From Candidatus Bathyarchaeia archaeon (GTDB taxonomy: Archaea; Thermoproteota; Bathyarchaeia; Bathyarchaeales; Bathycorpusculaceae), in the NCBI GenBank assembly GCA_050015395.1, contig JBEKBM010000029.1, positions 1 through 28,782 of the forward strand: a stretch of 28,782 nt of DNA, read 5' to 3'. Below, in pieces: positions 14,301 through 25,705 of the stretch. Made by a program: the position numbers and the translations under genes. The notes beneath the pieces were generated by a model that saw only the letters and a list, made by a program, of their open reading frames with translations, was not told where the DNA came from and ran no database searches. Numbering within the stretch: the stretch's first letter is position 1; every line of letters starts with the position of its first letter.

Positions 14301-14732
14301 ATGAGAGCTAATAGAGGGTTTACGGTTTTTGTTGAAAGGCGTATTTCTCAGCTTCGGCAAACTGCTGATTACGATACACAGCATCTTAGAAGAGAGTGGA
14401 TTGATAAGCTTAACGTTACGTTCACTGTGGCTAATTCGATTGCTAAGGGTGAAGTTAATCGGCAGCGAGTTGGCAATAGGGTAGAGTTTATAACTCCTAA
14501 GCAGCGGCAGATGTGGGCTCATGTTGCTGCTCATATTGCGATGGTTATGGGTAACTTGGCAAAAGGGTACGATGAGCACCAGTTTAATGAGGATTTAGCT
14601 GAAGTGGAACGGTTAGTTGATGAGATCAAGAAGCTACAAGCTCAAAGAGCTGAGGAAGGAGATCGAGCAGCAGAAGGCAAACCTGCAGACAAATGCAGTG
14701 GAACAGGCACCGAAAGCGTTAGTAATCCCTGA
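14301..14732 (+). CDS. Helical proviral protein upstream of terL (candidate terminase small subunit)
   Basis: GGTGA SD; helical/coiled-coil character; overlaps the terL 5' end. Assignment is by position only. Confidence 0.6.
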   Translation: MRANRGFTVFVERRISQLRQTADYDTQHLRREWIDKLNVTFTVANSIAKGEVNRQRVGNRVEFITPKQRQMWAHVAAHIAMVMGNLAKGYDEHQFNEDLAEVERLVDEIKKLQAQRAEEGDRAAEGKPADKCSGTGTESVSNP

Positions 14733-16026
14733 GGATCCTGTTGATTTTGCGCGGGATTTCTTCGGTTTTGATGCAAAGGAATATCAGGCTGGGCTTCTTC
14801 GCGACAAAAGTAAGCGTATTGTGGTTCGCTGGAGCAGGCAAGCTGGAAAAACCACGTGCATCGCATTGAGGGCAATCTGGTTTGCATGCGTCTACCCGAA
14901 GACGGTGACGTTGATTGTTGCGCCCACCTTGCGCCAGAGCATGATTATGAGTGATCGTATCCAAGATTTTCTTGCGAGCTTGCCGAAAGATAAGAGAACG
15001 ATGCTTGTTGAGAAGTTACAGCGCACAACAGTACGCTTCAGAAACGGTAGCCGTATAGTTGCTTTGCCTAATAGCCCGCAGTTGCTTCGCGGTTACACTG
15101 CAAATCAGGTTATTACCGATGAATCGGGTTTCTTCAAGGATGACCGGCTCGTATTCTACAATGTGCTTTATCCAATGCTGTCAACAACAGATGGCACATT
15201 AATCGCAAGTAGCACTCCCTGGAGCAAGGACAGCGTTTTCTACCGCTTTTGCCAAGCGCCAGAATTCAGCAAGCACGTTGTGACTTGTGAGGATGTCGTG
15301 CGTAGCGGGCTTGTTAAACAGAGCTTTATAGATGACACAAAAGCGCTTATTCCTCCTGAGCGTTTCCAGCGGGAATTCATGTCTGAATTTGTTGAAGACA
15401 TTGATGCGTGGCTAACGCAGAGTCTTATCGTCAGCTGCATCGACAGCCAACTTGTATCTTATGATTTTCAAGCTCAGCCTCAGGGTGAATTCTACGCTGG
15501 CGTTGACTTCGGGAAAGAACAAGACTTTAGCGTTGTGCTGGTGGTCGAGAAGCAAGGCTACATTCTGAGGGTGGTTCATGTCCATCGCTTTCCATTACAT
15601 TCGCAATACGCTTCAGTTATAGGTTATATCAAGAGCCTGCAGGATCGCTGGAAAATAATCCGAGCAGTATATGGCGACGTCACAGGAGTTGGCTCATATA
15701 TTGTTGAGGATATGGTTCGTTGTGGGATCCAAGGCGTAACTGGAGTGACCTTCACAGTTAAGTCTAAAGAGGAGATGGCTACGATTCTGCGGGAAAAGAT
15801 GCGCAACGGCGAAGTAAAGATTCCATATGTTCCGACAAGAAAACTGGAAGATATTGATCTAACAGCTGAATTGAATGTTGAAAAGTTTGAGCTCATGAAG
15901 ACTGGGCACTTGCGCTTTAGTCATCCTGAAGGTGGGCATGATGACGTTTTCTGGAGCACTTCGTTGGCTGTTCTAGGTTCTGTGCAGGCACCGTTGCCTG
16001 GTAGAGGCGCTGTTATGCCGTATTAA
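14617..16026 (+). CDS. terL: Terminase large subunit (Terminase_6 family)
   Basis: Q motif YQ; Walker A SRQAGKTT; Walker B VITDE; coupling motif SSTP; nuclease motifs GVDFG, DVTGVG and HDD. Confidence 0.95.
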   Translation: MMRSRSYKLKELRKEIEQQKANLQTNAVEQAPKALVIPEDPVDFARDFFGFDAKEYQAGLLRDKSKRIVVRWSRQAGKTTCIALRAIWFACVYPKTVTLIVAPTLRQSMIMSDRIQDFLASLPKDKRTMLVEKLQRTTVRFRNGSRIVALPNSPQLLRGYTANQVITDESGFFKDDRLVFYNVLYPMLSTTDGTLIASSTPWSKDSVFYRFCQAPEFSKHVVTCEDVVRSGLVKQSFIDDTKALIPPERFQREFMSEFVEDIDAWLTQSLIVSCIDSQLVSYDFQAQPQGEFYAGVDFGKEQDFSVVLVVEKQGYILRVVHVHRFPLHSQYASVIGYIKSLQDRWKIIRAVYGDVTGVGSYIVEDMVRCGIQGVTGVTFTVKSKEEMATILREKMRNGEVKIPYVPTRKLEDIDLTAELNVEKFELMKTGHLRFSHPEGGHDDVFWSTSLAVLGSVQAPLPGRGAVMPY

Positions 16027-16092: not shown

Positions 16093-16638
16093 GTGAAAAA
16101 TTTAATGGACCAAGAGAATAAAAAAATCAAAAAACCTGAAGAAAAAACAGAGACAAAAAGTTTGCTTGAGGACTGGCCGAGTTTTTGTGCTTGGGAGCAA
16201 GCCCTCGACGATAGTCGGAGTAAAGGAATTCCAGCGTTCTTGCAAGAACCTGAAGACAAACAAATAAGCAAAGAAGGGGTGAAGCCTTTGTCTGAACTGA
16301 ACGCTCAGCAAGGTGCTTCTACACAACAGGCACAAGACTTAATCAAAAATGCATCGGAAGAATCGGGGCCAAAACAATTGACGTACGAGGATTTGACGAA
16401 TCAACTGCAAAACTTGGAAAAGCAGATTAAACAGATTCCAAGCGCTAGCTATGATGAACTTGTCGCATTGAAAAAGAAGATTGCGGATTTGAATAAGGAG
16501 ATTGTTAAGAGGACGCCTATGCGTGATTTAGGCAAGAAGATTAGTGAGCTTTCTAAACAGTTGCAGCAACCTGAAGACGAGGAAGATAGCGAGAGCAAAG
16601 AAACTGAAGCATCTGAAGCTAAAAGTGCTGAGGGCTAA
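16093..16638 (+). CDS. Acidic coiled-coil protein, possibly a scaffold/head-assembly remnant
   Basis: E/K/Q-rich heptads in the position expected for head genes; may be a deletion fusion. Confidence 0.5.
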   Translation: MKNLMDQENKKIKKPEEKTETKSLLEDWPSFCAWEQALDDSRSKGIPAFLQEPEDKQISKEGVKPLSELNAQQGASTQQAQDLIKNASEESGPKQLTYEDLTNQLQNLEKQIKQIPSASYDELVALKKKIADLNKEIVKRTPMRDLGKKISELSKQLQQPEDEEDSESKETEASEAKSAEG

Positions 16639-18233: not shown

Positions 18234-18590
18234 CTAAAGCAACGCATGAATAAATTTTATTGCCTCTACCCTTCTTTCTTTGCAAATATTTAAGGTTCTC
18301 ATGCCCTTTTCCGTTAAAGAAAATAGGCATTTTCCACATGAATATTCTGTGCAAATCATTTCTTCAAACCACAGAATATCCAACGAATTATCAACCTTCG
18401 AAGAGTCCAATACATTACCTGATTTAGTTTTTATAGTATTAAAGATGACTTCTTTGCTTAACAAACTCTTTTTTGAGAGTAATGCTAAAATGGCGTACTG
18501 CAAGATACGTTCCGCAATAATATTTACTAGTTCAGCGATTCCTTCAGATCTATGTAATTGCTGAATTTCCGCTTTCTTATAAGCCATCAA
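18234..18590 (-). CDS. PadR-like winged-helix protein
   Basis: ILALLSKK...FSLTEKGMRTL (PadR Y/FxLTxxG wing); overlaps the MinD stop. Confidence 0.7.
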   Translation of the reverse strand: MMAYKKAEIQQLHRSEGIAELVNIIAERILQYAILALLSKKSLLSKEVIFNTIKTKSGNVLDSSKVDNSLDILWFEEMICTEYSCGKCLFSLTEKGMRTLNICKERRVEAIKFIHALL

Positions 18591-19359
18591 TTTTATCTGC
18601 CACCTCCTCTAATTTCTTAATAAAAGGATGATCTGGCTGCTGAATAGCTAATAATGCCATTCTCTCTGCTTGCAGAACGTCGCAGTAGCAAGGAATTTTG
18701 CTTATTACTGGATGCTTTAAAATTTCTTCTGTTTTAGATACTAAGTCGTTTTCTTCATTGGGGATAATTCTATTTTCTGGAGAAAATTTATTCAAAATAA
18801 TAACCGTTTTTTTGTCTAAAATATCGAATATATCTTTAAGCATATTTTTTGTCCCAATCAAATCAACCAAGTCAGAATTCATTACGATAACGCACACATC
18901 TGAACAAGCTAAAGCATTAACTGAAGAATACTGAACTCCAGGACTCGTGTCAAAAATGCAATAATCGATGCCCATATCGCTATTAAGTGAAGATAGCAAT
19001 GAAAAGAGCTTCTTAACGGCAACTGCTTCCCAAGCTTGACTCTTTAGCATCATATTTTGGATGGCTTCAACAGAAGGGTTAGCCAATCCCACTTGCAGCT
19101 TACCTTTAAGATTATAATAGTTCGATATGTCAATTAGCACTTGCACTTCCTTGCACCTGCCATTCAAGAAGTCATTTAACCAATATTTTACTGGAGAATT
19201 AAGCGCCTTGGAGAAAATAATTACCATACTAGGCGCTCGAAAATCAACATCTAAAAGTGCAACGTTAAAACCCCTGGAAGCCAAAACACACGCTAAATTA
19301 GTTGCAATTTCAGTCTTTCCTGTTCCCCCACGGGATGAATGTATCGATATGGTTTTCAT
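18577..19359 (-). CDS. MinD/ParA-family ATPase
   Basis: Deviant Walker A SRGGTGKT, LLDVD, FDTSPG, ILNK. Confidence 0.92.
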   Translation of the reverse strand: MKTISIHSSRGGTGKTEIATNLACVLASRGFNVALLDVDFRAPSMVIIFSKALNSPVKYWLNDFLNGRCKEVQVLIDISNYYNLKGKLQVGLANPSVEAIQNMMLKSQAWEAVAVKKLFSLLSSLNSDMGIDYCIFDTSPGVQYSSVNALACSDVCVIVMNSDLVDLIGTKNMLKDIFDILDKKTVIILNKFSPENRIIPNEENDLVSKTEEILKHPVISKIPCYCDVLQAERMALLAIQQPDHPFIKKLEEVADKIDGL

Positions 19360-19736
19360 TTTTTCGCCTCCAATTCAGGTTCGATGGAAAAATACATGGT
19401 TCGGCCTTCCCGTTTTTTCTTTACATAGCCCATCCTTACTAGCTGATTAGCAAAGGAACTTTCTACTGCTCTTAAATTACCCGTTACCTTAGCGATGTCA
19501 TCAGCGGTGGCTCTTTGGAACTTATACAAAGCCATGGCAGTTCGTCTAAGTGACGCTGGTAGCTTCAATAACGTCATAACGTCAGCTTGTGGATGTGATG
19601 AAGATTCATTCGAAGTTTCAAATATTTGTATAAGCTCAGTATTACTCTTAACTATTAAATCCAGCTTATCGTTAACTAATTTAAGCTGCTCAACCACCTT
19701 TGCAAGTGTTTCAACTAAGCTGGATTGCTCCTCCAT
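19356..19736 (-). CDS. Coiled-coil plus wHTH (ArsR/TrmB-like) transcriptional regulator
   Basis: ATADDIAKVTGNLRAVESSFANQLVRMGYVKKKREGR; ATGA overlap with MinD. Confidence 0.85.
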   Translation of the reverse strand: MEEQSSLVETLAKVVEQLKLVNDKLDLIVKSNTELIQIFETSNESSSHPQADVMTLLKLPASLRRTAMALYKFQRATADDIAKVTGNLRAVESSFANQLVRMGYVKKKREGRTMYFSIEPELEAKK

Positions 19737-19758
19737 TTACACTTCTCTCCCCAGCGGA

Positions 19759-19786
19759 GTGTAGTTTTGTATATGCAAAGCTACAC
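19759..19786. promoter_or_regulatory. 28-bp imperfect palindrome (candidate operator) in a divergent promoter
   Basis: GTGTAGTTTTGTAT|ATGCAAAGCTACAC; 12 of 14 positions are symmetric. Confidence 0.6.
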
Positions 19787-19864
19787 AATATAACACTATG
19801 GCAGACAAATAGACACACAAGGAAAACAGCAATGATTAAAAATAACAAGCAATAATAGAGAACC

Positions 19865-20869
19865 ATGAATCAAAAAAGCGCTGAGTGTATGAGCCGAAAA
19901 ATTCTGGAAGATAACGGAGCAAAAGTCGCAGACAAGGCTAAAATGATTTTACTTGAAGATCCCGCACTAAAAGAATTACGAGAACCTTTACAATTCATAA
20001 GTGAAAATTGGCGGGACATCACACCAGCATTAATAAGCCTCTCATGCGAGGCAGTTGGAGGAAAAACAGAAGAAACGTATGATGTTGCATTAGCCATGTG
20101 TTTGATGAATCTTGGCTTTACTACATGGGATGACATAATAGATAACGCACAATCCAAGACATTCAAGCCAACATTATTTGGGAAGTTTGGTCAAGGCATA
20201 ACAATCATTGTTGGCGGAATAGCCTCTGCAAAAGGGTTCACCATTCTTAACGACAGCAAAATAGAAAATGGAAAACGGAAAAAAATAGTAAAACTAATTT
20301 GGAAGCTATGGAGCAAAATGGCGACTGTGGAAACAAGTACGCTTAGAATGCGTACACAAGGTACTCTATCAAGCAATAAGAAATTTTGGAAGATCAAGTC
20401 AGAGGCTCTAGACCTTGGGACGTGCCTTAAAATTGGAGCAATAATAGGAAACGGCTCTAACAATGAAATAAACCACTTAGGCAAATATGGCGAATACCTT
20501 GGAATAATCCTTGCATTACAGCAAGACTTTCAGGTATCGGTTAATTTAACCTTGGAGTTGGCTGAAAAAATAAGAAACAATAGACTACCTTATTCCATAA
20601 TATGGGCAAGTGAGCATTCGAAGCCTTTTAAACTAGAGCTTGAAACCTTAAAACAAAAAAGCGTAATCGACGATGTATCAATAAAAGAATTTATTAAACT
20701 TTTCTTGGATACGGCAATTATTTACAATATCGAAAACAAGATAAAAAAATATAAAAAATTGGCTGAAAAAGAGCTTAACTATAGAGCGGCTACCAATGCT
20801 AGCCAATCGCTTAAATCATTTCTTAACATTCAATCAAGGACTTTTCATCACGAATTTCCGAGCAAATAA
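19865..20869 (+). CDS. Polyprenyl-synthetase-fold (class I isoprenoid) enzyme with degenerate IPP site, ComQ-like
   Basis: LSCEAVGG; FARM DDIID; PTLFGKFG; LGKYGEYLGI. Second motif reduced to QQDFQV; RRG and KRxRP absent. Confidence 0.85.
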   Translation: MNQKSAECMSRKILEDNGAKVADKAKMILLEDPALKELREPLQFISENWRDITPALISLSCEAVGGKTEETYDVALAMCLMNLGFTTWDDIIDNAQSKTFKPTLFGKFGQGITIIVGGIASAKGFTILNDSKIENGKRKKIVKLIWKLWSKMATVETSTLRMRTQGTLSSNKKFWKIKSEALDLGTCLKIGAIIGNGSNNEINHLGKYGEYLGIILALQQDFQVSVNLTLELAEKIRNNRLPYSIIWASEHSKPFKLELETLKQKSVIDDVSIKEFIKLFLDTAIIYNIENKIKKYKKLAEKELNYRAATNASQSLKSFLNIQSRTFHHEFPSK

Positions 20870-20883
20870 TGCAATATTGTCTC

Positions 20884-21105
20884 TCAGAGGATTTCTGGAT
20901 ATTTTTGCTGTGGAGTAGCCATGGTAAACAGTGTTGTTGCTATTGTACTGAAATATTTGTTTGGTATTTTTGCATTTCTGCAGATTTTACTAAGTGAGAC
21001 TTTATCTTTTTTTTCAACAGCCTCTTCTACTTGAGAAGCGAATTCAGGGGTGGTTAACGATTGTAGATAGCCTGATAACTCAGCTATATTGTTAATTTTA
21101 TTCAT
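20884..21105 (-). CDS. 73-aa small protein, candidate ComX/Nif11-like precursor peptide
   Basis: AGGTGA SD at 21117-21112, 6 nt before the ATG; helical leader ELSGYL..PEF..QV; short tail PQQKYPEIL. The CDS itself is well supported; the function is inferred. Confidence 0.7.
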   Translation of the reverse strand: MNKINNIAELSGYLQSLTTPEFASQVEEAVEKKDKVSLSKICRNAKIPNKYFSTIATTLFTMATPQQKYPEIL

Positions 21106-21211
21106 ATTTGTTCACCTAATTTTATATGTAAGATGTTTTGCTTTTAAGTATTTGCTAGAACGATAAATTTAAAAAAAGTACTGCTAATCTCTATCAGGTG
21201 TCATTGACCAA

Positions 21212-22405
21212 ATGAGCCTATTGAAAAGCGGTATAGCTATTTCAAAAGGTAACTTAATATTTAGTATTTATTCGTTTTTTTACCTATTTACTTTTTACAT
21301 TATATTAACGAGTTTACCAAATCTTTCTATTTCCACAAATTATCGTTTAATAGTAGTTGCAGCGCTAAATTTTGAGATATGTATCGCTATTTTGATCAGC
21401 AGTTTTTTTATCAAAAAAATCAATAAATTAATTTTTGCTTATATCATACCTTTACTCATAATAATTATGTCTATTTTTCTTTTTCTTACAAATTGGCCTT
21501 TTACACTTATAATTATTTTTGCAATAGCGCCGCTCTTAAGTATTGAATTAGTTATTTTTTTCAATCACTTCCAAGAGATCACTCTTTCTTCGGAACGAGC
21601 ACGTACTGCGGGAATCATTGCTTTCGTAACGCTGCCCTTTATTTTTATTTTAACATTAATGCGCCAAAGCAGCATGAATAGTTTTTATTCTCTTATATTT
21701 ATAATTGTTTTAAATCTGGGAATTATATTTTTATTTTTTTTAAGACCTAACATAAAAAGCATAAATGAAAAGAAAGAAGTTGGGAATTACTTTGAAAAAA
21801 AGGTAATTTTCTTTTATTTATTTCCGTGGATATTATTTTCAATTATTAATGTTACACTAGCTGAGGATGCCTCGATTTATATCCTTGAACAAACATCAGC
21901 TTCATTCCATTTGTTCTTGGTTGCTTTACAAGTTATTGGAGTTAATTTTGGGGCAGTTATAGCAGGGTTTTTTGCCGATTTTTTTGGAAGAAGGATAACT
22001 TTAGCTCTTAGCCTCACTCTGTATGGGACCAGTTCAGTTCTCGTAGGAATGTTCACAACTAATGGAGCATTTTCTTTAATGTACTTTATTAATGGTATGA
22101 GCTGGGGCATTCTTTTCGTGTTATATATTTTTGTTGTTTGGGGTGATTTAGCGAATAAAGACAATTGCGCGAAAATGTATTCTTTTGGATTAATAACTTA
22201 TTTCTCCTCATTAGGAATCGGCTTGCTTATTCCTCGAACTTTCTTACCAATTAGCACCAGCTCACTTTTAACATGTTTAATAATTTTCCTTTCAATCATA
22301 CCAGTATTCTTGGCACCTGAACTGATTTCATCCGATTTTATTGAAAAAATTAGACTAAAGCGACACATCAATGTCATAAAAAAACTGAATAAAAATCAAG
22401 GATAA
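21212..22405 (+). CDS. MFS transporter
   Basis: About 12 hydrophobic segments; ERARTAG; motif A GFFADFFGRR. Confidence 0.85.
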   Translation: MSLLKSGIAISKGNLIFSIYSFFYLFTFYIILTSLPNLSISTNYRLIVVAALNFEICIAILISSFFIKKINKLIFAYIIPLLIIIMSIFLFLTNWPFTLIIIFAIAPLLSIELVIFFNHFQEITLSSERARTAGIIAFVTLPFIFILTLMRQSSMNSFYSLIFIIVLNLGIIFLFFLRPNIKSINEKKEVGNYFEKKVIFFYLFPWILFSIINVTLAEDASIYILEQTSASFHLFLVALQVIGVNFGAVIAGFFADFFGRRITLALSLTLYGTSSVLVGMFTTNGAFSLMYFINGMSWGILFVLYIFVVWGDLANKDNCAKMYSFGLITYFSSLGIGLLIPRTFLPISTSSLLTCLIIFLSIIPVFLAPELISSDFIEKIRLKRHINVIKKLNKNQG

Positions 22406-23331
22406 ATATTGTCAGCTGATCTTGGAAACGCTGAAGCTTTTTTAATATTTGATAGTTTGCATACCCATTGGAGCAACCTTTCTATTCCTATTGCAAATCC
22501 AGAGCAGGGCTCTAAGCTTGATTGCATAAACTTTTCCATCCAAACTTGATTACTTTCATTTAGTCCTGCCTCTCTCACAGTATTGAGCATTTTGTCTTTT
22601 TCCGTTATCATTTGCAAGCTGCTTGCAATTTCACCATAGCCCTCTGGAGCAAGCAGGTCGGCGTATAATGACAGCTCCGGCTTCTCTGGATCTGTTTTAC
22701 TAAAGAATGTCTCAGGACCATAGGGATATTTCCAAATAAAAAATGGCTTATCAAACTTAAGACTCAGATGCTGCTCTAATTTCCAGTCTATTTCTTGTCC
22801 CCATACAATTTCGTAACTGTCATTTTGCAAGACATCGATAGCTTCGTCATAGGTCAACTGTTTAAACGGTTTCTGTACTTTTGCCATTTCACTGTAGGGA
22901 CGATTAAAACAATCGAGCGTTTCCTTAAACTCGGATGCCAGAGAACTGCAAATAAAGGCAATAAGTTCTTCCTGAACGGTCATAATATTTTCTAAGTCGC
23001 AGTGTTGAACGGCTTCCATTCGCCAATATTCAGTCAAATGCCTTTTATTCGGTTGTTCTTTTCTGAAGCTGGGTGTAATGGTGTAAACTTTCCCCAATTT
23101 ATCCGCAAAAACCTTCCCATACGGCAAGAATCCTTTAGCCAAGTATGCCCTTTTATCATAATACTTGACCTCAAATGAGTTTGGCGACTCTCCTAATGCA
23201 GGAACAAGTATTGGCGCTTGAACTTCAATGTAACCATTATTATCAAACCAACTTCTTGCTTTCTTAAGTAAAAAAGCCCTAAGCTTAAGCAAATCAACCG
23301 TTTTTTTATCTATCAACCTATTTCTCTCCAA
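22396..23331 (-). CDS. AsnRS-like class IIb synthetase catalytic domain without an anticodon-binding domain
   Basis: Motif 1 GYIEVQAPIL, motif 2 SFRKE..RHLTEYW, DLLAPEGYGEI, motif 3 GFAIGIERL; 311 aa; no N-terminal OB fold. Confidence 0.9.
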   Translation of the reverse strand: MERNRLIDKKTVDLLKLRAFLLKKARSWFDNNGYIEVQAPILVPALGESPNSFEVKYYDKRAYLAKGFLPYGKVFADKLGKVYTITPSFRKEQPNKRHLTEYWRMEAVQHCDLENIMTVQEELIAFICSSLASEFKETLDCFNRPYSEMAKVQKPFKQLTYDEAIDVLQNDSYEIVWGQEIDWKLEQHLSLKFDKPFFIWKYPYGPETFFSKTDPEKPELSLYADLLAPEGYGEIASSLQMITEKDKMLNTVREAGLNESNQVWMEKFMQSSLEPCSGFAIGIERLLQWVCKLSNIKKASAFPRSADNIYP

Positions 23332-23351: not shown

Positions 23352-23610
23352 TATAAAAAAATAGTTAATTTAAGACCTATCTGGGCTTGCTCCAAGAGAG
23401 AATTTATATTGTGTAGTCGTCTGAGGTTTCTTGTGGGTTTTCTTCGTCAACGGTTTCGATGGTTACGTAACCTTTCTTGAAAGCTAAAGCGAACACGGCA
23501 GCCAATGCAACTATGGCTGAAGCGGCTATTAGTATTGTTTCGGTTGGGAAGGGGTTGGTTTGAGTTGGTGTTGGGGTTGAGGTTGGGGTTGTTGAGGGGG
23601 TCGGCGTTGG
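23352..23610 (-). repeat. Direct repeat copy 1: orphan surface-protein C-terminus (PT linker, TM, ...DDYTI*) plus downstream T-rich terminator-like sequence
   Basis: Matches 25358-25609; 23521-23610 is identical to 25520-25609. Confidence 0.92.
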
Positions 23611-23638
23611 TAGCACGCGCGCTTAATCGATTAAATGG

Positions 23639-24004
23639 TTATTCATTGAGTTTGGCGTTTTTTCTTGGGGTTATGTCTATTGCGTATTGGAGAATTTTTT
23701 GCATGAGGAATCTTTCTTTGATTGTGGCAAATTCGCTTGGCGTGTAGGCGAGTGTTTCGAGGTCTTCTTTGTATTTCCACATGTGTTGTAGCAAACCCCA
23801 TCTTTTAGGCTCGGGCATTTTGGCAAAAGATTCAGAGACTATTATAATGTCTACGTCGCTATTTCTATGTCGCTTGCCTTTTGCAGTTGAACCGTAAAGA
23901 AGTGCTTGGTCAACACCAAGTTCAGTGTCTAGCATGTTAACGTATTCTCGTATTCGTTCCATAAGAGGTCTTTTATCTTTTAGTATAAGTTGCTGTTTAG
24001 CCAT
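23639..24004 (-). CDS. Minimal nucleotidyltransferase (MNT), HEPN partner missing
   Basis: LYGSTAKGKRHRNSDVDIIIVS (GSx10DxD). Confidence 0.9.
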   Translation of the reverse strand: MAKQQLILKDKRPLMERIREYVNMLDTELGVDQALLYGSTAKGKRHRNSDVDIIIVSESFAKMPEPKRWGLLQHMWKYKEDLETLAYTPSEFATIKERFLMQKILQYAIDITPRKNAKLNE

Positions 24005-24655: not shown

Positions 24656-24952
24656 ATGCAGAGGTCACTTGAACATGTAAAGCAGCAGCTTCAAGAGTTG
24701 AAGCCTACGCTTAGGAAACGTTTCAAAGTGGAGTCTATAGAAATTTTTGGTTCTTACGCACGAAGCGAGCAGACAGAGAAAAGCGATTTAGACATTTTAG
24801 TTACATATTCTGAAATGGTTGATTTACTTTTAGTAGCTGGCTTACGAAGATACCTTAGACGAAAGCTTCACATGAAAGTGGATGTTGTTTCCAAGGAATT
24901 CTTAAACAAACACATCAAAGACCAAGTTTTAGAGGAAGCTGTGCCGGTGTGA
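24656..24952 (+). CDS. mntA: MNT antitoxin (type VII TA)
   Basis: FGSYARSEQTEKSDLDILV. Confidence 0.9.
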   Translation: MQRSLEHVKQQLQELKPTLRKRFKVESIEIFGSYARSEQTEKSDLDILVTYSEMVDLLLVAGLRRYLRRKLHMKVDVVSKEFLNKHIKDQVLEEAVPV

Positions 24953-25314
24953 AAAGGGACAATTTGGAACGCAGCCCCAAGATTTATTTGTCAGAAATTA
25001 TTGAATTTATTGACAAAATCGAAAAGTACACAAAGGGCATGTCATACGACGATTTTTCCAAAGACACACGAACAGTTGATGCCGTAGACGCCAATCTCAG
25101 GAATATTGGTGAAGCCGTTCGTGTGTTGTCGAAACACCGAAGGGTAAAAGAGTTATTCTACCGTTTCCACATACCCTATGTTGACCTTTCTGATATGCGA
25201 ACCGATCTTACGCATGAATACTTCAGCATGAATCCTAAGTCTATTTGGAAAACAACATCAACATTAATTGCTCTAAAGCCGCAATTTAAGAAAGTTCTTG
25301 AAGAATTGAGTTGA
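24949..25314 (+). CDS. hepT: HEPN/DUF86 RNase toxin
   Basis: DAV..NL..IGEA and the Rx4HxY motif RTDLTHEY; GTGA coupling to the MNT gene. Confidence 0.9.
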   Translation: MKRDNLERSPKIYLSEIIEFIDKIEKYTKGMSYDDFSKDTRTVDAVDANLRNIGEAVRVLSKHRRVKELFYRFHIPYVDLSDMRTDLTHEYFSMNPKSIWKTTSTLIALKPQFKKVLEELS

Positions 25315-25357: not shown

Positions 25358-25609
25358 TATAAAAAATAGATTTTAGACCTGTCTGGGCTTGCTCTAAGAG
25401 AGAATTTATATTGCATAGTCGTCTGAGGTTTCTTGTGGGTTTTCTTCGTCAACTCCGATAGTTATGTAACGTTTTTTGAAAGCATAAGCGAACACGGCAG
25501 CCAATGCAACTATGGCTGTAGCGGCTATTAGTATTGTTTCGGTTGGGAAGGGGTTGGTTTGAGTTGGTGTTGGGGTTGAGGTTGGGGTTGTTGAGGGGGT
25601 CGGCGTTGG
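25358..25609 (-). repeat. Direct repeat copy 2: orphan surface-protein C-terminus (...DDYAI*)
   Basis: Matches 23352-23610 and is truncated at the same base. Confidence 0.92.
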
Positions 25610-25705
25610 CACAGGTGAAATTCACTGCCTGATTAAAACCAAAAGCGATAAACACCACCTCGCCAACAGCAGTTATCTTAAGTTAACAGCGATTGGGAAA
25701 GGAAA

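Follow-up and report, generated by a model that had tools for sequence, protein, structure and literature searches.

A candidate peptide-prenylating gene cluster conserved among Bathyarchaeia

What use might an archaeon have for a prenyl-synthase-like enzyme encoded next to a small peptide of no known family, a membrane transporter and a truncated aminoacyl-tRNA synthetase (aaRS)? This question is raised by a compact group of genes at positions 18234-23331 of a stretch of 28,782 nucleotides from a Candidatus Bathyarchaeia archaeon (contig JBEKBM010000029.1, hereafter the window), which is contig C29 of a genome of 2.59 Mb that is 98.9% complete. The answer favoured here, and regarded as somewhat probable, is a system resembling those of peptides that are made on the ribosome and modified after translation (RiPPs), in which the prenyl-synthase-like enzyme (PT) would prenylate a C-terminal Trp or Tyr of the peptide in the manner of ComQ/ComX or PalQ/PalX, having originated independently from archaeal short-chain prenyl synthases. 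The stretch is present whole in 24 metagenome runs from peat and wetland, each of them flagged as a possible source.

Several bacterial systems provide the frame for this proposal. According to one source, ComQ retains the first Asp motif (FARM, for first aspartate-rich motif) and is without the second (SARM), a pseudo-SARM being implicated in the binding of ComX; in PalX a leader domain and a C-terminal Trp are both conserved, and the PalQ/PalX pair came to light through an AlphaFold model of the complex, with the tail reaching into the active site (PMC10853753). [quoted passage not shown] Literature searches for archaeal ComQ-like or peptide-prenylating systems found none.

The first step towards an answer is that the genes form a conserved unit. 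In samples of 401 genomes of the order, 401 of the class and 332 of the family, a profile of the peptide found its open reading frame (ORF) in 32, 14 and 27 genomes, respectively, the 32 being intact, and the peptide gene lies between the PT gene and that of a protein of the major facilitator superfamily (MFS) fold in 28 of 29 short loci. Counts of gene content are based on 22 loci fetched with long flanks: the peptide, MFS and AsnRS-like (asparaginyl-tRNA synthetase-like) genes occur in 22/22 each, and those for PT, a helix-turn-helix (HTH) protein and a MinD-like ATPase in 21/22 each, the missing genes being located at contig ends. Order and orientation are as in the window in 21 of these 22 loci (the exception, L102, is rearranged) and identical order was seen in six additional loci from a later search of the family, while the genes flanking the module are not common to the loci. 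The same order and orientation recur in at least four families of the order and in one genome of another order, an arrangement conserved far beyond chance.

An earlier, sequence-only reading had described an island of seven genes with low G+C content. Coordinates and strands of the seven ORFs agree with an ORF check and the composition is indeed distinct (G+C of 0.352 within 18234-23331 vs 0.411 for the remaining window); six of the genes are conserved as a module, but the leftmost, for a putative winged-helix (wHTH) protein, has a homologue in only 3/22 related loci, and in L139. The conserved unit in Bathyarchaeia therefore consists of six genes, not seven, encoding the HTH protein, the MinD/ParA-like ATPase, PT, the peptide of about 73 aa, the MFS-fold protein and the AsnRS-like protein. 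Their co-occurrence in other genomes, which that reading had set beforehand as a check, was found in the 22 long-flank loci and the 6 further ones. Trees of PT and of the AsnRS-like protein recover the same well-supported groups and split the genus of the window into three places; the cluster was therefore inherited or moved as a block and not with the species tree.

The peptide itself combines a folded body and an exposed, partly invariant end. In its AlphaFold2 (AF2) model, the window peptide forms four helices (residues 3-17, 20-31, 35-44 and 49-63) followed by a disordered tail, with a predicted local distance difference test score (pLDDT) of 80.6 that rises to about 88 in the four-helix body. 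The tail reads TPQQ-K68-Y69-P70-EIL, the aromatic residue being Tyr, and a GGTGA box resembling a Shine-Dalgarno sequence can be read 6-10 nt before the ATG. Among 1.84 billion representative proteins the peptide profile matched 41, nearly all of 56-78 aa, and [WY]P followed by 0-5 residues is found in 37 of the 41; two of the four exceptions are repeat-protein false positives. A conserved aromatic residue near the C-terminus, another check set beforehand, is thus present and invariant. Peptides from the loci end in K[WY]P plus exactly three residues in 26 of 28 cases, and these 26 show 25 different final tripeptides. Mean pairwise identity amounts to 0.11 over the final three residues, to 0.56 over the preceding six and to 0.53 over a 36-residue block of the leader. 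The last residue is hydrophobic or aromatic in 22/26. The small ORF is intact in every locus.

No relative of the peptide was found in Pfam, NCBIfam, PDB folds or the protein Atlas: four members scanned with hmmscan up to E 10 yielded scattered chance matches only, Foldseek against the PDB returned nothing under E 4.4 and the Atlas only generic helical look-alikes. A leader of Nif11/NHLP type, considered early on, was dropped for want of support, as Pfam, NCBIfam, the PDB and the Atlas gave no Nif11/NHLP match. In a single predicted protein of 220 aa (P0026), the N-terminal half of a PT is followed by a peptide's C-terminal half, which ends in QKWPDEA; PT and peptide genes lie on opposite strands in every locus seen, and P0026 may stem from an error of assembly or gene calling, or from an inversion.

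The enzyme has the family signature of prenyl synthases (PF00348, E 4e-11), with a best NCBIfam score of 71 bits against a cut-off of 468. Its Pfam and NCBIfam matches include no ComQ-specific model, the nearest relatives found are archaeal and other synthases of geranylgeranyl diphosphate synthase (GGPPS) type, and the nearest solved structure by sequence is the GGPPS of P. horikoshii (1wy0, E 2e-26). The first Asp motif of the window protein, D89-D93, reads WDDIID and the pattern WDDxxD is kept in 23 of 24 aligned members of the clade (in L080 it is YNHIMD). The second is replaced by QQDFQVSVNLT, for which the 24 members, except the divergent L039 and L080, show xDFxVSxNLT. The GGKRxR loop for isopentenyl diphosphate (IPP) is absent from all members of the PT family (NWRDITP aligns with GGKRWRP of the GGPPS of the same genome), so that normal elongation of IPP, which the sequence-only reading had named as an outcome that would count against it, is unlikely. 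A canonical GGPPS-like gene is located on contig C9 of the genome.

A pairing of enzyme and peptide is suggested by structure prediction and by covariation. Complex models of the two reached an interaction prediction score from aligned errors (ipSAE) of 0.83, 0.80 and 0.79, vs 0.26 for the best control; in calibration the mark was reached by 58/80 solved complexes and 2/110 mismatched pairs, counts that are only approximate here because the complex model was run on custom alignments. The runs share at least 71% of contacts, with a partner pLDDT of at least 78, and by these models PT is predicted to bind the peptide. The interface places peptide residues 4-18 against PT 226-233 and 268-281, the contacts of lowest error being those of the first peptide helix (8-15) with PT 226-232 and 270-281; within the segment 226-232, directly behind the pseudo-SARM, are N227, T229 and L232, all of them invariant. 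Also within the confident interface are peptide residues 62-65 and 68-69 (Lys-Tyr) and PT residues 48-53, 82 and 98-101, which flank the first Asp motif. From the division of the contact lists, the tail of the peptide may meet the site of the lost IPP loop.

The nature of the aromatic residue is mirrored in the enzyme: PT residue 185 is G/A in 8/8 Tyr-type and E/Q in 24/24 Trp-type systems (six of the 32 pairs were scored after the rule had been stated), and the switch occurred at least twice, in the clade of the window and in G125, which lies within a Trp-type genus. Residue 108 of the MFS-fold protein behaves likewise in 21 systems, being L/V in Tyr-type and F/S/A in Trp-type members, and the independent Tyr-type G125 changes here too.

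The AsnRS-like protein (PF00152, E 8.5e-44) aligns with the AsnRS of P. horikoshii (1x54, E 8e-64) over residues 130-434 only and is therefore without the anticodon-binding domain, as had been proposed at the outset. Its scores with four NCBIfam models fall short of the cut-offs concerned: 201.7 bits vs 414 for the AsnRS model, 181.7 vs 368 (E 2e-53) and 117.5 vs 309 for two models of asparagine synthetase A (NF005052 and NF005054), and 70.1 vs 286.9 for the EpmA model TIGR00462; the best matches are to AsnRS. Motifs 2 and 3 are conserved in 22 aligned members (FRxE...RHLTE and GFxxGxER). The arginine of GGSQR, which we take to bind the side chain of Asp or Asn, is kept in 3/22 members and is Met in the window protein, and with this pocket residue lost the substrate is probably neither amino acid. 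Full-length canonical AsnRS and AspRS are encoded elsewhere in the genome. An identity as asparagine synthetase was rejected on the scores below cut-off, the distant match to the AsnA chains, the replaced pocket arginine and the presence of a canonical AsnRS.

The distribution of this gene follows that of the peptide. Truncated AsnRS, defined as an open frame of <=353 aa, occurs in 28 genomes of the order sample of 401, and all 28 are among the 32 peptide-positive genomes; a frame of 355 aa from a 68%-complete genome, which scores like the full-length AsnRS of its genus, was excluded from the set. The gene is restricted to loci in which the tail has the Lys of K[WY]P and is absent from the K-less G132 and from three full loci of a second type (type-2, described below), a correlation only, which suggests by analogy with EpmA that the ligase may act on this Lys. 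A putative role as a second tailoring enzyme is read from this strict co-occurrence. The literature on aaRS paralogues in RiPP pathways yielded nothing about a ligase of AsnRS type.

The membrane protein has no Pfam match and only weak NCBIfam matches to MFS. Its AF2 model (pLDDT 85.7; predicted template modelling score, pTM, 0.85) consists of 12 long helices and a C-terminal helix, and the top Foldseek matches are OxlT, MCT1, NorA and VMAT2 (template modelling score, TM, 0.6-0.72, with 0.67-0.72 for OxlT and MCT1); 245 PDB structures matched at E <=0.001, every one listed being an MFS-type transporter. The initial label "MFS" is thus borne out by the twelve-helix fold and the PDB matches, not by Pfam. 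The gene occurs in 22/22 loci, and its place is always next to the PT family.

The MinD-like ATPase (Walker A, SRGGTGKT) matches AAA_31 (E 1.7e-17) as well as ParA and CbiA, all NCBIfam matches are far under their cut-offs, and the nearest solved structures are archaeal MinD proteins (1hyq/1g3q, E 1e-8). Type-2 loci, loci of other families that lack the peptide and a distant locus also have its gene next to their PT-MFS pair. The HTH protein, whose gene is each time directly upstream of the MinD gene (overlapping the MinD-like start by 4 nt in the window), matches TrmB below the cut-off (E 7e-4) and is a probable regulator of the divergent promoters. Between these promoters lies the palindrome pointed out in the sequence-only reading, with the half-sites GTGTAGTTTTGTAT/ATGCAAAGCTACAC in the window. 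A search for its consensus GTGTATTATTGTATATACAATAATACAC with <=7 mismatches allowed gave a single copy in each of 17/22 loci, at 66-116 nt upstream of the PT gene, and no other occurrence in those related loci; the 28-bp element is probably an operator. The label "PadR" given to the wHTH protein has no support: the Pfam search gave no PadR match, only sub-threshold ones to MC4 (E 0.0019) and HTH_45 (E 0.036). The features of the island are listed in Table 1.

Table 1. Genes and sites of the bathyarchaeal cluster (positions in the window; strand in the third column).
Feature	Position	Strand	Description	Basis
wHTH	18234-18590	-	118 aa, putative winged-helix protein; accessory gene outside the conserved core	weak Pfam matches
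MinD-like ATPase	18577-19359	-	260 aa, P-loop ATPase of the MinD/ParA superfamily; core component	AAA_31/ParA/CbiA
HTH	19356-19736	-	126 aa, C-terminal TrmB-like winged HTH	TrmB below cut-off
Palindrome	19759-19786	.	28 bp, imperfect; between the divergent HTH and PT genes	12/14 pairs
PT	19865-20869	+	334 aa, enzyme resembling trans-isoprenyl diphosphate synthases	PF00348
Precursor-like peptide	20884-21105	-	73 aa	conserved intact ORF, no family
MFS-fold protein	21212-22405	+	397 aa, membrane protein with 12 helices; presumed exporter	AF2/Foldseek
AsnRS-like protein	22396-23331	-	311 aa, paralogue of the AsnRS catalytic core	PF00152

A bare triad of PT, peptide and MFS genes stands alone in G132; a metagenome contig rich in G+C and the loci of a second peptide subfamily contain the triad as well. 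The contig (L137, about 60% G+C by eye) carries the MFS gene, a peptide ending in QPDQIWPPLLWW (tail WPPLLWW) and a PT with the motifs DDIID and NDDNRD, and the MinD and then the HTH gene are on the PT strand. The second subfamily, or type-2 (L129, L130 and L131, also L132-L134 and L145), has a PT of a different clade; the peptide gene sits between PT and its MFS gene with a MinD-like gene near, and the peptides (86-105 aa) share the leader core and end in tails such as GDIIW, NPWMTGA or PGWFLK. No AsnRS-like gene is present in the three type-2 loci fetched with long flanks, whose neighbours include a TIR_2+TRASH protein, a GGR-family reductase and a KaiC-like ATPase.

PT-family genes adjoin an MFS-like gene in 16/19 loci fetched across the order. 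The genome of the window itself has such a locus on contig C26 (L007:490-4262), with a paralogous PT of 326 aa that keeps both acidic motifs, an MFS-like gene (451 aa) and then a radical SAM/SPASM gene of TIGR04084 (309.8 bits, cut-off 225), a trio kept in 9/19 loci. A recognisable peptide gene was not found in loci of the C26 type, the profile search included, and none of the small ORFs in the PT-MFS gap of 12 paralogous loci is conserved. Copies of the cluster in decay were also observed: G184 (L102) has an AsnRS-like gene with 5 stop codons and an MFS gene divided between two frames; G213 (L128) retains peptide, MFS, ligase, HTH and MinD genes and the PT gene is absent; the first Asp motif of the PT of G496 (L121) is NNMMD; and in L139 and L140 the ligase matches fall in two pieces per locus.

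How might these parts work together? On the reading of a prenylated RiPP-like product, the peptide of about 73 aa would be the precursor and its four-helix N-terminal domain the recognition leader, with the flexible tail presenting the invariant aromatic residue (Trp or Tyr), after which come Pro and three variable residues. The surface of PT near the degenerate second Asp motif, with the invariant N227-L-T229, would hold the leader, and the first Asp motif, which is retained, would serve to ionise an allylic prenyl diphosphate, whose prenyl group PT would move onto the aromatic side chain; as the IPP loop is gone, no transfer to IPP would occur. In the main clade the AsnRS-derived ligase would add a second, ATP-dependent modification, most likely, by analogy with EpmA, on the adjacent invariant Lys. 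The product would be exported by the MFS-fold protein, possibly with the MinD-like ATPase, and the HTH protein would control the divergent promoters through the conserved 28-bp palindrome. Prenyl transfer, the target of the ligase, export and the role of the product (signal, antimicrobial or membrane anchor) are what we infer from the data above. A more elaborate version holds that the product is a doubly modified, secreted lipopeptide made from a C-terminal 'aromatic-Pro-xxx box' (Trp or Tyr prenylated by a GGPPS-derived enzyme, Lys aminoacylated by a ligase that does not depend on tRNA, export by an MFS carrier coupled to the MinD-like ATPase) whose hypervariable last three residues, with matched changes in PT and the MFS-fold protein, constitute strain-specific 'pherotypes'; this is considered unlikely, and if true it would be the first archaeal case of peptide-based cell-cell signalling, of peptide prenylation and of a Tyr-directed trans-IDS-like prenyltransferase.

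A number of observations weigh against prenylation of the peptide. Neither a protease nor a receptor is found among the cluster proteins with Pfam and NCBIfam, and the Tyr that would be the acceptor in the window is without precedent among the characterised enzymes of the 2026 review (PMC13290415). The leader of about 60 residues is as conserved as a folded protein, and for this reason might be a stable partner that is not cleaved. The score of the complex is the confidence of the model in itself and not a measurement; the covariation at residue 185 rests on two independent events only, and that residue is outside the confident interface. The degenerate second Asp motif, on which the sequence-only reading had drawn, characterises the window and its clade but not two related peptide-linked PT groups: type-2 and distant enzymes keep an acidic second motif (TDEVRD/ADDVKD and NDDNRD, respectively), so that, as two such groups retain D[DE]xxD, its loss is not a defining feature. 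Most PT-MFS paralogues, including the C26 pair, have no recognisable peptide gene between them, so the pair must have a function independent of this peptide. Finally, no RNA run is among the sequencing runs that contain the stretch.

Some of these observations would be expected if the small protein were a stable accessory or regulatory subunit of PT, the isoprenoid being made, or put on a small molecule or lipid, and then moved by the MFS-fold protein. Heteromeric hexaprenyl, heptaprenyl and geranyl diphosphate synthases do have small subunits. Such a role agrees with a four-helix body that is as conserved as the aromatic region (0.53 vs 0.56) and folds at a pLDDT of about 88, with predicted contacts that are strongest from helix to helix and not from tail to active site, with the wide occurrence of PT-MFS pairs that have no peptide, and with a GGR-family reductase beside 2/3 full type-2 loci, which fits lipid chemistry. 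However, the known small subunits of such synthases are, to our knowledge, themselves proteins of the prenyl-synthase fold, whereas the peptide has no fold relative; for a structural subunit it is difficult to account for an invariant [W/Y]-P that lies in the disordered tail, keeps a constant distance from the C-terminus and precedes a hypervariable end. PT residue 185 covaries with Trp or Tyr, and the missing GGKRxR loop makes chain elongation unlikely. A subunit is accordingly thought rather improbable. The strict association of the aaRS-derived ligase with the peptide (28/28 genomes), its restriction to tails with the Lys of K[WY]P, the loss of its pocket arginine and a fixed tail length that suggests C-terminal recognition would fit a carrier or scaffold in the style of LysW or the pearlins, on whose C-terminal region ligase and PT would build an aminoacyl/prenyl small molecule, and not a lipopeptide, that is then released and exported. 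The end of a chemically extended scaffold would be expected to be conserved, whereas the last three residues are hypervariable; Pfam and NCBIfam reveal no LanB-like/PEARL protein, ATP-grasp enzyme or protease in the cluster, and the PT/peptide/MFS triad occurs without the ligase in other lineages. With this evidence a carrier is judged quite improbable.

It could also be argued that the genes are unrelated neighbours: PT a GGPPS paralogue of lipid metabolism, the AsnRS-like protein an enzyme of AsnA type, the MFS-fold protein a nutrient carrier and the small ORF a chance frame or orphan. Truncated AsnRS paralogues of archaea are indeed known as asparagine synthetases, and the NCBIfam model of asparagine synthetase A gives an E of 2e-53. 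The score of that match is nonetheless 181.7 against a cut-off of 368, and 1nnh and 3p8t are matched at E 2e-15 to 1e-13 vs 8e-64 for AsnRS. Gene order and orientation are conserved across families and the flanks are not, canonical AsnRS, AspRS and GGPPS are encoded elsewhere in the genome, the genes are tied together by a conserved palindrome and by gene trees that agree, and no locus has a broken small ORF; chance neighbourhood is therefore very hard to credit. The probability that is left belongs to functions beyond the readings listed here.

The cluster shares several traits with ComQ/ComX: an enzyme of the prenyl-synthase fold that, like ComQ, keeps the first Asp motif and has a degenerate second, a neighbouring gene for a small precursor-like peptide whose invariant aromatic residue stands a few positions from the C-terminus in variable surroundings, and a patchy distribution with cluster trees that depart from taxonomy. 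Unlike ComQ/ComX, the archaeal PT derives from GGPPS-like enzymes of archaea (1wy0 being the best solved relative), the peptide is encoded on the opposite strand, belongs to an unrelated family and has a folded four-helix leader, its aromatic residue can be Tyr, and the cluster adds an MFS-fold protein, a MinD-like ATPase, an HTH regulator and an AsnRS-derived ligase. No histidine kinase or receiver domain like those of ComP/ComA was found among the seven proteins with Pfam and NCBIfam. Because there is no kinase or response regulator, the precursor is unrelated and the nearest relatives of PT are GGPPS of archaeal type, the system is not of the comQXPA kind. The precursor of PalQ/PalX (Paenibacillus alvei) is likewise a conserved folded leader domain with a conserved aromatic residue, Trp, at the C-terminal end, its enzyme is also of the isoprenoid-synthase superfamily, and its recognition by a complex model follows the reasoning applied to the archaeal pair here; however, the PalX leader is of NHLP type whereas the archaeal one matches no known family, PalQ needs Trp as the last residue whereas here Pro and mostly three residues follow, and the neighbour there is a kinase whereas here MFS, MinD, HTH and aaRS-like ligase genes are found.

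The ligase in turn resembles EpmA (GenX/PoxA), which acts on elongation factor P (EF-P), in having a class-II aaRS core minus the anticodon-binding domain and possibly a protein lysine as acceptor, but it derives from AsnRS and not from LysRS, and its score with the EpmA model is far below the cut-off. It has in common with archaeal asparagine synthetase A (1nnh/3p8t) an AsnRS-derived core without anticodon domain; it is far closer to AsnRS (8e-64 vs 2e-15 and 1e-13), under the family cut-off, and its pocket arginine is replaced in 19/22 members. In the CaaX-box protein prenylation of eukaryotes the modified residue has a fixed place close to the C-terminus, and the few residues behind it vary and mostly have a hydrophobic end. 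The archaeal tail recalls this arrangement in the fixed C-terminal distance of its aromatic residue and in its mostly hydrophobic or aromatic last residue, but the acceptor would be Trp or Tyr and not Cys, the enzyme fold is unrelated and the cluster encodes no protease or methyltransferase of CaaX type.

Within the cluster, the MFS and AsnRS-like genes overlap tail-to-tail by 10 nt. PADLOC gave zero matches for all seven proteins, and a reading as a defence system was dropped for that reason. A scan for promoters and terminators of bacterial type showed no enrichment (17 promoter-like sites vs 18.6 expected; 7 terminator-like sites vs 3.9 expected), its model being bacterial and uninformative for an archaeon. 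To the right of the island, two near-identical ORFs of 70 and 68 aa (23404-23616 and 25406-25612, both on the minus strand) have a Thr/Pro-rich N-terminus and a single hydrophobic segment. Between them (23639-24004, minus strand; 24656-25314, plus strand) are a nucleotidyltransferase gene and a toxin-antitoxin pair of MNT/HepT-like type, with matches to NTP_transf_2 (E 5e-15) and a HepT-like family (E 2.7e-16). Elsewhere in the same genome, contig C33 (L094:1501-1695) fuses codons 1-37 of the AsnRS-like gene (89% identical) to codons 72-102 of the gene for the 118-aa wHTH protein (61%), a junction that joins both end genes of the island as if by deletion of a second copy or in a strain variant. 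Contig C25 (L096:273-1566) carries another N-terminal AsnRS-like fragment, which adjoins copies of the window ORFs 14617-16026 and 16093-16638.

Prenylation of peptides by prenyl-synthase-like enzymes is known from few bacterial systems only (ComQ, PalQ, ChrPC), and all characterised cases act on Trp. If the favoured reading is true, the cluster would be the first archaeal RiPP of such chemistry, found in abundant, mostly uncultured archaea of peat and sediment, and the prenyl-synthase fold would have been recruited a second time, independently, for the lipidation of peptides. The cluster would also provide a new job for an aaRS paralogue, as well as a natural switch between Trp and Tyr specificity that is tied to a single residue of the enzyme and would be useful for the biocatalytic lipidation of peptides.

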